Virus record (IMG/VR): IMGVR_UViG_2778261136_000011
Direction: 5' to 3' (one strand)
Length of the DNA: 23,250 nt
Origin: a virus
Lineage: Duplodnaviria > Heunggongvirae > Uroviricota > Caudoviricetes
This document shows, in pieces, positions 20,133-22,721 of the stretch. Position 1 is the first letter of the stretch. Every line of letters starts with the position of its first letter. Under the pieces are notes generated by a model. It searched no databases. It saw only the letters and a program-made list of their open reading frames with translations, and had not been told where the DNA came from. The position numbers were made by a program, and so were the translations under genes.

Positions 20133-20776
20133 TCAGAATTCAAATTGTCTTGCTCTTAGTTGCGCCAGCATACTTCTGGCCCTATGCACCATATAGTTGG
20201 CGGGATCAAGTTTTGCTGCTTCGCGGAGCAATGTGTCGCGAGTCCGGTTGGTTATATGACGAGTCTCGTAGGCCAGATCAAACAGCTTTCCATAGTAATC
20301 AGAGTTCAGTTCTCTCATGACGGGGTATAGCTGTTTACTGAGTTGTTGTGCTTTTTCCATCCAGAGTTGAACGTAGCAGAGCAGGATGATGTCTTCTGCT
20401 GTGAATTGAGGCTGAATATGAGGTTGTGGCGGTATAGCGCTTTTTTTGCTTCACGGTCCATAATATCCAATACCCAGCGACGGAACTCTTTGGCTACTGG
20501 AGTTGTTGCGAACATAGCTACCAGGTGGGCACTGCGTAGAGAGAAAATACGCACATCTTTCTCTCGTAAGCTATTGTTGATCCCGTTGAACCTCATTTTG
20601 AGGTTGATTGACATACAAGGAGTAAACTCATCCGAATTGCGGTTGTATATCTGGGTGATTTTATCGCCGCGCGAATACTCCAGTGCAGAAGCCAAAGTCG
20701 CGGCGGTGAACCACTGTTTGCCGTCGTGTTCGATCGTTTCAAGAACGTGGGATTTGAATATGAGTTGAGTGCTCAT
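20133..20776 (-). pseudogene. BRO-N-domain antirepressor interrupted by a frameshift in a homopolymer (T7 on plus strand, 20441-20447)
   Basis: ORF 20315-20776 carries a BRO-N-like N-terminus; ORF 20133-20360 carries a C-terminus (WMEKAQQLSKQLYPVMREL...LRARQFEF) homologous to the C-terminus of the 21033-21656 protein; one extra A/T in the A7/T7 run would fuse them. Confidence 0.7.
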
Positions 20777-20925
20777 AGTTTTATGTCCTTGTATTTTTTG
20801 TTCAGAATCCCTGTGTTCAGCAGGGCGGTCGGGTACTTGAACACCGCATACAAGAACGGCCCGTATCCTTAGCCTTGCGGCTGTTTTTCGGTATACGCGC
20901 TACCCGACCATATCTGAAAAATGGA

Positions 20926-21024
20926 CATAAAAAATCCGCATGACTGACGGGTGCGGCTTCCGCTTGTATAGGTGTGTTCAGCACCTTGGTGCGGAATATA
21001 TCCCCGCTAATACGGATTTGTCAA
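20926..21024 (-). promoter_or_regulatory. Promoter plus short hairpin-terminated leader upstream of the BRO-N antirepressor
   Basis: On the minus strand: TTGACA (plus 21019-21024), 17-18-nt spacer, TATATT/ATATAT (plus 20995-21001); about 40 nt downstream a hairpin ccgca-N11-tgcgg followed by a U-run (plus 20926-20956). Confidence 0.45.
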
Positions 21025-21032
21025 ATCTGGTC

Positions 21033-21656
21033 TTAAAACTCGAATTGTCTTGCCCGCAGGCTTTTCAGCATTGGTCTGGCCCGCTGGACAACGAAACTTG
21101 ACTGGTCAAGCTGTGCCGCCTCCCGCAGTAGTGCTTCCTTGTTCTTCGTCACCATGTAGATGGTCTCAAACGCAATGTCATACAGCTTGTTCGTGTATGA
21201 GGAGTTCAGCTCTTTCATGATCGGATACAGGTGTTTGCTGAGGTCCTGGGCTTTTTCCATCCAGAGTTGCATGTAGCAGAGGAGGATGATTTCCTCGGCT
21301 GTGAATTGCTGCTCAGTTTGTACTGGCTGAATGTTGCGAAGTTTCTTTTCGCACTCGATGAAGTAGCGGCGTATCTGGCGACCTTTTTCGTTACGTTCAA
21401 CCATCGCAAGCTCTTTGGCTGTGTCGAGGGTGAGGTGGTAATCCTTGCGGCGGCGGCCTGGAGTTTTCGCCAAATTTGGCGAAAATAGAATGTAGTCTAA
21501 ATTTTCTACGAATCCATACTCGTTTAGCCTGGCCCGTATCCAGTTAGAAAAATCTTTACCTACCTCTAAAAATCCATGCAAATCACGCGCGTTCACCAGA
21601 AGCGTAGGTTCATTTGAGATTGTACCTTCAAACACAGGGATGAGTTGAGTGGTCAT
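21033..21656 (-). CDS. Antirepressor, AntA-type N-terminal domain plus shared C-terminal domain (207 aa)
   Basis: Start placed at MTTQLIPVFEG (AGGAGG RBS 5 nt upstream), not at the track start 21818; motifs ARDLHGFLEV..., DYHLTLDTAKELAMVERNEKGRQIRRYFIECEKKL (AntA-like); C-terminus shared with the BRO-N paralog. Confidence 0.8.
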   Translation of the reverse strand: MTTQLIPVFEGTISNEPTLLVNARDLHGFLEVGKDFSNWIRARLNEYGFVENLDYILFSPNLAKTPGRRRKDYHLTLDTAKELAMVERNEKGRQIRRYFIECEKKLRNIQPVQTEQQFTAEEIILLCYMQLWMEKAQDLSKHLYPIMKELNSSYTNKLYDIAFETIYMVTKNKEALLREAAQLDQSSFVVQRARPMLKSLRARQFEF

Positions 21657-21830
21657 GATGACCTCCTTTGGCTTTTTTCGAGAAATGCCACCACAAGATG
21701 TGGTGCCGGGAGGCTCGAAACGGCCCAAAAGATACCGCGGACTTATTCCCCTTGCGGGTGTTGTATTCGTCGCCCTCCCGACATTGATCGGGGATGTGAC
21801 CGCACACTGTGCTATCACTGAATAACAGGC

Positions 21831-21858
21831 ATAAAAAATCCAACACTGACGGGGTTGG
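21831..21858 (-). terminator. Leader hairpin/terminator of antirepressor unit A (identical copy at 22359-22386 for unit B)
   Basis: On the minus strand: ccaac-N9-gttgg followed by attttttat. Confidence 0.5.
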
Positions 21859-21905
21859 TTTAATCCGCTTTTGGGAGGTTTTCGAGGCCTCGGCGCGGAG
21901 TATAG

Positions 21906-22184
21906 TCAGTATTGGACGCAGTCGTCAACCATCGCAAGCTCTTTGGCTGTGTCGAGGGTGAGGTGGTAATCCTTGCGGCGGCGGCCTGGAGTTTTCGCCA
22001 AATTTGGCGAAAATAGAATGTAGTCTAAATTTTCTACGAATCCATACTCGTTTAGCCTGGCCCGTATCCAGTTAGAAAAATCTTTACCTACCTCTAAAAA
22101 TCCATGCAAATCACGCGCGTTCACCAGAAGCGTAGGTTCATTTGAGATTGTACCTTCAAACACAGGGATGAGTTGAGTGGTCAT
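21906..22184 (-). CDS. Truncated AntA-domain copy (92 aa) ending ...AMVDDCVQY
   Basis: Identical to the N-terminal 86 aa of the 21033-21656 protein, then 6 different codons and a stop; same RBS; lies within duplication unit B. Confidence 0.5.
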   Translation of the reverse strand: MTTQLIPVFEGTISNEPTLLVNARDLHGFLEVGKDFSNWIRARLNEYGFVENLDYILFSPNLAKTPGRRRKDYHLTLDTAKELAMVDDCVQY

Positions 22185-22433
22185 GATGACCTCCTTTGGC
22201 TTTTTTCGAGAAATGCCACCACAAGATGTGGTGCCGGGAGGCTCGAAACGGCCCAAAAGATACCGCGGACTTATTCCCCTTGCGGGTGTTGTATTCGTCG
22301 CCCTCCCGACATTGATCGGGGATGTGACCGCACACTGTGCTATCACTGAATAACAGGCATAAAAAATCCAACACTGACGGGGTTGGTTTAATCCGCTTTT
22401 GGGAGGTTTTCGAGGCCTCGGCGCGGAGTATAG

Positions 22434-22721
22434 TCAGTATTGGACGCAGTCGTCAACCATCGCAAGCTCTTTGGCTGTGTCGAGAGTTAGGTGGTAGTCC
22501 TTGCGGTTGTGACCGCCTCTACCAGATGTTTGCTTTCCCAAATTGGAAAGCAAAATATAGTCTTGATTTTCAATGAATTCGTATTCTGAAATGCGATTTG
22601 TAATCCATGCCGCAAACACCTTTTTCACGCCTAAAAAAGCATGCAGATCGCGGGCATTGCAGAGTAGGGCTATTTCGTTGTCGATAGTGCCGTTGAATAC
22701 GGGGATGAGTTGACTGGTCAT
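22434..22721 (-). CDS. Diverged truncated AntA-domain paralog (95 aa)
   Basis: MTSQLIPVFNGTIDNE...DYHLTLDTAKELAMVDDCVQY; AGGAGG RBS; diverged from units A/B (roughly 60 percent identity by eye) with the same C-terminal truncation. Confidence 0.55.
   Translation of the reverse strand: MTSQLIPVFNGTIDNEIALLCNARDLHAFLGVKKVFAAWITNRISEYEFIENQDYILLSNLGKQTSGRGGHNRKDYHLTLDTAKELAMVDDCVQY

Follow-up and report, generated by a model that had tools for sequence, protein, structure and literature searches.

Antirepressor-like cassettes at the end of a lambdoid prophage, probably guarded by sRNA-Xcc1 antisense RNAs and reshuffled at conserved joints

The window analysed here, a stretch of 23,250 nucleotides from a virus of the Caudoviricetes (IMG/VR record IMGVR_UViG_2778261136_000011), carries between positions 20133 and 22721 an array of four AntA/BRO units, all on the minus strand. 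A preliminary description of this DNA had recognised four paralogous antirepressor units, and the open reading frame (ORF) listing together with Pfam domains bears this out. The array is probably best read as a set of antisense-RNA-guarded antirepressor cassettes that reshuffle at conserved joints. The leader in front of each gene, which had passed as a leader of no particular kind, belongs to a known structured small RNA (sRNA) family, sRNA-Xcc1, and is the best-supported functional element of the region. The units are numbered 1 to 4 in the direction of transcription, and all features of the array described below lie on the minus strand.

All four leaders match the full length of the sRNA-Xcc1 model (Rfam RF02221, positions 1-87 of 87) with 68.6-73.4 bits, the gathering score being 53 bits. 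Each cassette presents its parts in the same order: a sigma-70-like promoter, a short word (b1), a hairpin with a run of U residues (U-run), the ~87-nt sRNA-Xcc1, a second hairpin, a further word (b2) at the Shine-Dalgarno sequence (SD), and the gene. The promoter-like site (TTGACR-18-TATAYT, 10-11 of 12 matches) occupies the same relative position upstream of each unit. With the RNA fold taken from the Rfam structure, the loop of P3, the last hairpin, is complementary to b2, a word directly 5' of or overlapping the SD. It is also complementary to b1, a second copy of the word that lies ~20-25 nt downstream of the -10 hexamer and is followed by CGG and the U-run hairpin. Gene 3 is the sole intact protein gene in the array; the RNA and its set of words are intact in every cassette.

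The individual cassettes were assembled from a promoter scan, Rfam matches, sequence matching of the words and hairpins read from the sequence. Cassette 1 begins with the promoter-like site TTGACA-18-CATACT (22940..22969), followed by b1 CAAATAAG and CGG (22920..22927), a terminator-like hairpin with an 11-nt loop and a U-run between b1 and the RNA (22886..22913), and the RNA itself (22762..22850, 69.1 bits), whose P3 loop b' CUUAUUUG lies at 22789-22796. Its b2, again CAAATAAG, is fused to the SD GGAGG (22727..22738) and forms a cognate duplex of -9.9 kcal/mol; the complete set for this unit reads loop CUUAUUUG, b1 CAAAUAAG-cgg and b2 CAAAUAAG-gagg. The promoter-like site of cassette 2, TTGACG-18-TATACT (22427..22456), overlaps with the final 7 codons of gene 1 and with its stop. 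Downstream of it, a word a1 (CUCGAAA) precedes b1 (CCCAAAAG) at 22393..22414, and the minimum free energy (MFE) fold pairs both with a' and b' of the RNA. The RNA (22225..22310, 73.4 bits) holds the loop b' CUUUUGGG at 22252-22259 and the segment a' UUUCGAG at 22242-22248, and by sequence match and duplex energy a2 (CUCGAAA) and b2 (CCAAAGGA), the latter overlapping the SD, lie at 22190..22210. Cassette 3 has a copy of the same promoter-like site (21899..21928) and an RNA identical to that of cassette 2 (21697..21782, 73.4 bits). Units 2 and 3 thus share the loop CUUUUGGG, b1 CCCAAAAG-cgg and b2 CCAAAGGA-gg, and in both of them a1 and a2 stand before b1 and b2, with the junction after P3 (a') complementary to the CUCGAAA upstream and the CUCGAAA downstream. 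Cassette 4 combines the promoter-like site TTGACA-18-TATATT (20995..21024, 11 of 12 matches) with an RNA of divergent core (20819..20909, 68.6 bits), the loop CUUGUAU (20848-20854) and the word ATACAAG as b1 (20963-20969) and b2 (20788-20794), that is, AUACAAG-cgg and AUACAAG-gac. Hairpins with U-runs equivalent to that of cassette 1 occur at 22361-22386, 21833-21858 and 20929-20956. The window therefore holds three loop specificities, CUUAUUUG, CUUUUGGG and CUUGUAU, and cognate loop/word duplexes (-9 to -10 kcal/mol) are clearly separated from non-cognate ones (-1.3 to -6.4 kcal/mol).

The association of the RNA with this type of gene extends far beyond the window. The invariant RNA core AATACAANACCCGNAAGGGGAAT was scanned in IMG/VR and then in GTDB species genomes, blind to genes, and the start codon of the first downstream ORF was found mostly 80-100 nt past the core. 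Among 110 distinct first downstream proteins from IMG/VR, matches comprised KilA-N (20), AntA (19), Bro-N (17), P22_AR_N (14), Rha (10) and ORF6N (8), and among 115 from GTDB they comprised Bro-N (34), Rha (7), P22_AR_N (5), ORF6N (3), KilA-N (2), AntA (1) and SymE (1), counts in which a protein matching more than one family may figure more than once. P22_AR_C is present in 31 of the IMG/VR downstream proteins, and a few helix-turn-helix proteins occur in the GTDB set. The hosts are Alpha-, Beta- and Gammaproteobacteria and Desulfovibrio-type bacteria, with isolated Acidobacteriota, Bacteroidota and Verrucomicrobiota.

Across these instances the loop follows the words on either side of it. In permutation tests of loop-leader pairing, the viral set gave z = 20 for loop versus b2 and z = 16 for loop versus b1, and the genome set z = 13 and z = 23.5, respectively; none of 5,000 permutations attained the observed value. 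When words of at least 7 nt shared between the upstream leader and the ribosome-binding site (RBS) region were collected without use of the loop, 88 of 155 non-redundant instances had one. A Watson-Crick complement of at least 6 nt to the shared word was present in the instance's own P3 segment in 72 of these 88 (permuted mean 5.9, maximum 18), representing 61 distinct words. In an alignment of nine leaders built on the cassette-1 scaffold, both sides changed in 6 of 8 b1-loop pairs and 7 of 8 loop-b2 pairs; none of 500 shuffles attained the observed covariation score, and slid controls scored lower. Near-identical Escherichia coli leaders display coordinated changes at all three sites (CAAATAAG/CTTATTTG, CTTCAAAG/CTTTGAAG, CTTACAAG/CTTGTAAG and ACGTCAG/CTGACG). 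Read from sequence, the three-way match of loop, b1 and b2 covaries over ~60 specificities in the 155 viral and bacterial instances, and the coordinated changes in the E. coli leaders suggest diversifying selection on what may be RNA-based immunity specificities. When 63 RNA instances were aligned with MAFFT and folded with RNAalifold, P2 and P3 emerged with covariation, while P1 was lost to misplaced gaps.

A subgroup of the IMG/VR instances (L004, L007, L025, L026, L052, L072, L092, L093, L118 and L121) is Xcc1-like with the P3 loop CAUGCGG. Its RNA is followed by a second conserved element, CTAGCC...CTTGACGCCTAGCGTTGGCTAGCC...GGGGGCGACCCCACCGCA, and then by ORFs of ~83-85 aa, and the loop complement CCGCA(U) stands just before the start codon.

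The nearest known layout is that of the immI region of phages P1 and P7. The annotated P1 GenBank record gives the order of promoters P2c4 and P1c4, a1 and b1, the C4 RNA (77 nt), a2, b2 (~10 nt before the icd start), icd and ant1/ant2. Like the cassettes of the window, immI thus consists of a promoter, a1 and b1, one or more hairpins with a U-run, an RNA of ~80 nt, a2, b2 on an RBS and an antirepressor operon; P1 b1 is likewise followed by CGG hairpins and a U-run. The consensus topology of C4 (RF01695) also resembles that of sRNA-Xcc1, with an AUGG at the 5' end, a long stem closing over two hairpins and a junction, and a CCACC-like tail at the 3' end, and in both RNAs b' sits in the long loop of the second hairpin and a' in the junction after it. 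Between P1 and P7, specificity is set by differing short words. Short-word specificity differs among relatives here as well, with three types in the window and ~60 in the sRNA-Xcc1 family. The systems differ in that the first hairpin of C4 is replaced in sRNA-Xcc1 by an extended stem with an invariant internal loop, that b2 in the window lies on the antirepressor-like gene's own RBS instead of that of a small upstream ORF such as icd, and that the window has several tandem cassettes where P1 has one. As in the C4/CI-type class, single-stranded segments of the RNA are complementary to two words of the same transcript orientation, one upstream of the RNA and one on the RBS of the gene that follows; the class is further defined by release through RNase P processing and by repression of the downstream genes. 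By layout, the window cassettes belong to this functional class. The RNA copies of the window have a 5' AUG|G context and an NCCA/NCCC-like 3' tail. Many instances (L004-L251; window 21783-21790) carry (t/a)ATG directly 5' of the closing stem and an NCCA/NCCC-like sequence directly 3' of it; flanks of this kind, present also in the C4 consensus (uAUGG ... CCaCC), could be an RNase P substrate signature.

Other antirepressor systems share part of the arrangement. In Gifsy-1, IsrK ends at a leaky terminator, the processed STnc1160 follows, and orf45-anrP translation is controlled by complementary segments (Hershko-Shalev et al. 2016, PMC4825925), an organization that its authors likened to P4 CI with seqA and seqC (PMC4825925). 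Common to Gifsy-1 and, on the proposed model, to the window are the short promoter-proximal RNA, the partly read-through terminator, the processed downstream RNA, the complementary segments on either side and the control of antirepressor translation. In contrast to the Xcc1 cassettes, which are known from sequence, the effector demonstrated in Gifsy-1 is the short upstream RNA, acting as an activator via a coupled upstream ORF. With P22 immI and the Shiga toxin (Stx) phage Phi24B the window shares the P22_AR_C domain of genes 3 and 4. The control of P22 ant involves the Arc and Mnt proteins and an opposite-strand RNA, sar. The control elements of the window are, by contrast, same-strand RNAs, and no arc or mnt homologue is present among the ORFs examined in 18643-23250. 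Phi24B Ant, which has a P22-like C-terminal region, promotes efficient induction, and its knockout weakens the response of a late-promoter (pR') reporter after induction (PMC3064807). The sRNA-Xcc1 of a Xanthomonas campestris integron cassette, of which the window elements are full-length relatives, is a discrete RNA of ~88 nt that is also found upstream of a toxic gene, symE. In APSE phages the RNA precedes an ORF6N gene, and Xylella carries five copies spaced ~381 bp apart.

In the mechanism proposed for the window, the RNA, either within a read-through transcript or after its release, would pair with b2 and the SD and block translation of the antirepressor-like gene. The promoter-proximal b1, in cis or as a short terminated RNA, would compete for the loop and could relieve the block, and different words would create specificities that do not cross-react. 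Several points weigh against this account. Accumulation of the RNA in E. coli, its processing, and repression as opposed to activation are predictions from sequence, and the short upstream RNA of Gifsy-1 activates translation (PMC4825925). The cassette promoters are known as consensus matches alone, and the terminator scan did not call the hairpins with U-runs, which is attributed to their 9-11 nt hairpin loops. The complementarity statistics rest on related sequences, a concern that the many distinct words lessen and do not remove. Antisense pairing assigns no role to the internal loop AAUACAA...GGGGAAU, which is highly conserved and may bind a protein or ligand. Within 19900-23250 there is no match to C4 (RF01695), c4-a1b1 (RF03163) or isrK (RF01394) at E <= 5, and the kinship with C4 therefore shows in layout and topology, with homology no more than possible. 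Run on P1, this search detects all three families (isrK with 35.1 bits there, below its gathering score of 50), and Rfam lists no clan for sRNA-Xcc1.

The conserved internal loop is also an argument for a different function, in which sRNA-Xcc1 is a cis-acting sensor leader, riboswitch-like or bound by a protein such as the encoded Bro or Ant, and the complementarities represent alternative folds of one transcript. Both this loop and the GNRA hairpin (AAUACAAnACCCGnAAGGGGAAU) are invariant across phyla, a conservation that antisense pairing leaves unexplained. Moreover, when the leader is folded as a whole, its MFE structure has a1b1 paired with a'b' in cis, and the Gifsy-1 isrK leader acts via alternative structures (PMC4825925). 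However, the segments that pair are located, as they are in C4, in a loop and a junction that the conserved fold leaves single-stranded, so that no strand has to unfold, and the RNA mapped in Xanthomonas is a discrete molecule. A sensor is unlikely as the whole explanation, and it is in any case compatible with the antisense reading, given that P1 C4 too acts on the transcript that encodes it.

Gene 1 (22434..22721, 95 aa) is a truncated AntA gene ending in DDCVQY and a stop, and is annotated as a pseudogene in relatives. Gene 2 (21906..22184, 92 aa) is a truncated chimera that joins the N-terminus of gene 3 to the tail of gene 1. As previously described, both truncated copies share the DDCVQY stop (each ends in ...KELAMVDDCVQY), and each is still preceded by a promoter-like site, a leader and a strong SD. 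Their origin can be traced in the tail itself. In units 2 and 3 the -35 hexamer TTGACG lies within the codons GTT GAC GAC and the stop TGA just before the -10; therefore the DDCVQY tail is the next cassette's promoter (-35 and spacer) read in frame. The tail is read as the result of a deletion of the rest of gene 1, with a TTGA microhomology at the break, and gene 1 would accordingly be an old deletion derivative whose reading frame enters the next promoter and which is kept in many Stx-type prophages. The truncation removes ~22 residues, ERNEKGRQIRRYFIECEKKLR, that are near-invariant in every full-length homologue whatever its C-terminal domain.

That the truncated copies might act as short AntA N-domain peptides, decoys or modulators of the full-length antirepressor or of a repressor, had been part of the preliminary description and now seems quite unlikely. 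Such peptides would fit the retained expression signals, the AntA match over model positions 1-66 of 68, and the presence of the same tail behind at least four N-terminal alleles (78-100% nucleotide identity) with all frames open, in a form widespread in Stx-type prophages. Yet they would lack the near-invariant block, and their tail is explained as a by-product of deletion. Each truncated allele has a near-identical full-length twin elsewhere (e.g. L006, L084 and L088), which makes the intact frames explicable by recombination in a shared box instead of by selection on a peptide. The annotators of GenBank and the NCBI Prokaryotic Genome Annotation Pipeline (PGAP) class the truncated copies as pseudogenes. 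Finally, a metagenome scaffold with the same ynfG site (L127) holds at 2470-2720 a cassette with RNA and SD and no ORF, in which the SD is directly followed by the U-run hairpin of the next cassette. It consists of a promoter, b1 ACGTCAG, a hairpin, an Xcc1-like RNA (loop CUGACG, with a UUCG-type variant of the conserved hairpin) and b2 ACGTCAG with GGAG; leaders of this type also precede truncated AntA genes in L003 and L011.

Recombination among cassettes is evident in relatives as well. The domain shuffling noted earlier for the array is confirmed by database relatives that pair the gene-3 N-domain with the gene-4 C-domain and vice versa, and in one instance (L102) a gene-1-type coding allele stands behind a cassette-4-type leader. 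Domain shuffling among KilA-N and Bro-N proteins was reportedly described by Iyer, Koonin and Aravind in 2002. The array conforms to this pattern, with AntA and BRO-N as DNA-binding-type N-modules joined to a common C-module and with mosaic relatives. It goes beyond it in that the joints are visible at nucleotide level (a 54-nt box, the U-run hairpin and a 119-nt stretch at the C-domain start) and that one exchange is caught as an exact duplication. From these sequences, cassettes appear to recombine at three conserved joints: the U-run hairpin, the 54-nt box inside AntA and the start of the C-domain, within the 119-nt stretch.

The duplication that had been reported, 21398-21925 base-for-base equal to 21926-22453, is confirmed by direct comparison. 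The feature spans 21397..22484 with a period of 528, the identity running from 21397 to 21956 (+528) over 1,088 bp or 2.06 units, and 32 nt of a third copy are also exact; such a repeat cannot be attributed to chance. Tandem Repeats Finder, whose longest period is 500, was silent on it, and it was found by a repeat search and direct comparison. One duplicated unit extends from one 54-nt box to the next and comprises tail, promoter, a1b1, hairpin, RNA, a2b2 with the SD, and AntA residues 1-88. The box in gene 1, which encodes KDYHLTLDTAKELAMV (22453..22506), is 94% identical to those at 21925-21978 and 21397-21450, its proximal 32 nt being exact. In the single-copy state the boxes of gene 1 and gene 3 lie 528 bp apart, and the repeat begins and ends in boxes. 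Its length thus equals the spacing of pre-existing homologous boxes, its junction falls inside the homology, and E. coli RM10410 has a single copy; repeat bounds within the boxes at this spacing are therefore the signature of an unequal homologous crossover. The duplication fits one cassette-length unequal crossover between the gene-1 box and the gene-3 box. Such an event accounts for the chimeric gene 2, with promoter, leader and N-terminus of gene 3 and the tail of gene 1, and for the second copy of the cassette-3 RNA with its b1 and b2 words.

The event is very recent, as had been proposed: with one 528-bp unit removed, the window differs from RM10410, the nearest complete genome, by a single-nucleotide polymorphism (22821) over 2,323 bp. 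In this context the extra unit was absent from RM10410, from O22:H8 strain 154 and from all 5,426 complete E. coli genomes searched, of which seven cover at least 80% of the region. A junction-specific query against the complete E. coli genomes returned two-piece matches alone, ~570-580 bp apart, which therefore represent single-copy genomes. On the other hand, the chimeric 92-aa gene-2 protein, possible only with the novel junction, is recorded on 7 public contigs, and a 4,345-bp stretch of the window that includes the duplication recurs with 100% identity in two draft assemblies at NCBI (GCA_002462045.1 and GCA_004766835.1). The junction, at which the N-terminus of gene 3 meets the DDCVQY tail, is also crossed by metagenome contigs at 98-100% identity, some of them in other contexts. 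The duplication is probably real and private to a very small clade.

Of the earlier alternatives of a recent duplication or an assembly collapse or expansion, the former is thereby favoured, expansion being made unlikely by the two assemblies and the further contigs that carry the junction. An assembly artefact in which the true genome has one unit would be consistent with the exact identity of the copies, with the single unit of the closest complete genomes and with the draft status of the contigs that bear the duplication. It is nevertheless very unlikely. The two separately deposited assemblies share the identical two-unit structure in contigs of 34 kb and 277 kb, independent metagenome contigs cross the junction with some at 98-99% identity, indicating different alleles, and the end points fall exactly in the 54-nt homologous box, as unequal crossover predicts. 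Short-read assemblers are expected to collapse, and not to expand, exact tandem repeats. Another contig of 827 nt (L128, from GCA_003604735.1) reads AntA(gene-3 type)-tail-promoter-leader-AntA(gene-3 type)-tail. It looks as if the 528-bp unit had been passed through in a cycle, a hint that another sample may contain at least two truncated units of the gene-3 type.

The paralog array, domain shuffling and duplication are ordinary for prophage accessory regions, and the duplication itself is of minor weight, a snapshot of cassette reshuffling. Any effect that it has through RNA dosage or trans-immunity, with orphan cassettes kept for their RNAs, is speculation. A wider proposal, possible and at present doubtful, is that sRNA-Xcc1 constitutes a widespread, programmable sister of P1 C4 that guards antirepressor, KilA, Bro, Rha and SymE-type genes in Proteobacteria and beyond, and that truncated or ORF-less cassettes (genes 1 and 2, L127) are kept as a trans-acting RNA immunity library. 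If so, the targets silenced by the RNAs would be antirepressor cassettes of matching specificity in co-resident or superinfecting phages, and duplication of the 528-bp unit would alter the dosage of one specificity.

In the searchable literature, the C4-like reading, the target rule linking b1, loop and b2, and the link of sRNA-Xcc1 to KilA-N, Bro-N, AntA and Rha genes were not found. The nearest published remarks concern its position upstream of an ORF6N gene or symE; where published work does not merely note this position, it treats sRNA-Xcc1 as a trans-acting virulence sRNA, unlike the cassette reading given here. That the RNAs are ordinary virulence sRNAs with host targets, and lie upstream of ant or bro genes by accident, agrees with reports of trans action, HrpG/HrpX control and packaging in Xylella vesicles, but is scarcely tenable in view of the fixed position and orientation relative to the downstream gene, the overwhelming predominance of one functional class among those genes, and the covariation of the loop with its own gene's RBS word. 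If the antisense reading is right, a 'virulence sRNA' Rfam family gains a testable target rule, according to which the loop is matched both by the next gene's RBS word and by a decoy copy of that word behind the promoter, and the family becomes tied to one gene class, the antirepressor-like KilA-N/Bro-N/AntA/Rha/ORF6N genes. The P1 C4 principle would then extend from a few phage-plasmids to many prophages, including those of the Shiga-toxin type, in which antirepressor activity affects induction and hence toxin release.

The proteins of the array were assigned with the Pfam gathering cut-offs for AntA (PF08346, 27 bits), Bro-N (PF02498, 25.6) and P22_AR_C (PF10548, 22.4). Genes 1, 2 and 3 score 90.4, 91.0 and 93.7 bits for AntA. 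Gene 3 (21033..21656) encodes an AntA plus P22_AR_C antirepressor-like protein of 207 aa, the latter domain with 31.9 bits, and an identical protein is present on 379 contigs. Antirepressor function remains putative for these proteins and is proposed from the analogy with Ant of P22 and of Phi24B. The PDB, searched by sequence, gave no meaningful homologue (best E = 0.41). An AlphaFold2 model of gene 3, intended to place the helix that the truncated copies lack relative to the N-domain, was of low confidence, with a mean predicted local distance difference test (pLDDT) score of 52 and a predicted template modelling (pTM) score of 0.27, from a shallow alignment of 16 sequences (most at least 83% identical, gene 1 65%).

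Gene 4 (20133..20776) had been described as a BRO-N gene that shares its C-domain with gene 3. Both domains are present, Bro-N with 35.0 bits in 20776-20315 and P22_AR_C with 26.3 bits in 20360-20133, but they do not form one ORF. The two halves lie in different frames, split at a run of seven A residues (A7, 20441-20447), whereas intact relatives have A8 and encode a single BRO-N plus C-domain protein of 210-214 aa. The identical gene of RM10410, in the same A7 state, is flagged as 'frameshifted' by PGAP. The zero-frame A AAA AAA at 20441-20447 is a classical -1 slippery heptamer, and slippage there could in principle restore the fusion. Programmed -1 frameshifting was rejected given the A8 of intact relatives and the PGAP call, a homopolymer deletion or sequencing error being the simpler explanation of A7.

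The array lies at the end nearest the attachment site in a lambdoid prophage of the 933W/Stx type, which is inserted in E. coli ynfG. The assignment follows from an LPD38-type giant protein, hok/sok and Ead/Ea22, and from best phage matches to Stx-converting and Shigella Stx phages. The giant protein is encoded by one ORF of 2,807 aa at 8261-16684 on the plus strand and is typical of short-tailed Stx-type phages; its homologue in the relative 2014C-3307, annotated as 'LPD38 domain-containing protein', carries a frameshift. On the minus strand, 17730-17904 matches the sok antitoxin RNA over its full length (Rfam RF01794, 112.6 bits), and a Hok/Gef family protein is annotated in the corresponding flank of RM10410; together they indicate a hok/sok type I toxin-antitoxin module within the prophage accessory region.

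Antirepressors of the Gifsy type are reportedly controlled by LexA, as Lemire et al. are said to have described in 2011. No LexA box (CTGT-N8-ACAG with at most one mismatch) occurs in 19061-23250, which includes the cassette promoters. An exact CTGT-N8-ACAG, CTGTGATAACAAACAG, is located at 17061-17076 between the giant gene and the leftward accessory genes, and near-matches number 16 in the window against a shuffle mean of 7.3, above every shuffle.

At the junction of prophage and host, 23137..23250 on the minus strand is a 5' remnant of ynfG, which encodes a 4Fe-4S subunit. In relatives a partial 4Fe-4S protein is annotated here and after it ynfF and ynfE; transcription of the array runs in the direction of ynfEFG. 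Beside the remnant, two direct ATGCAAAGCTTTGT repeats form a 17-bp imperfect hairpin at 23055-23094 on the minus strand, followed by CTCACTTTTG. This hairpin may belong to the attachment site, or it may be a terminator shielding the array from transcription of ynfEFG.

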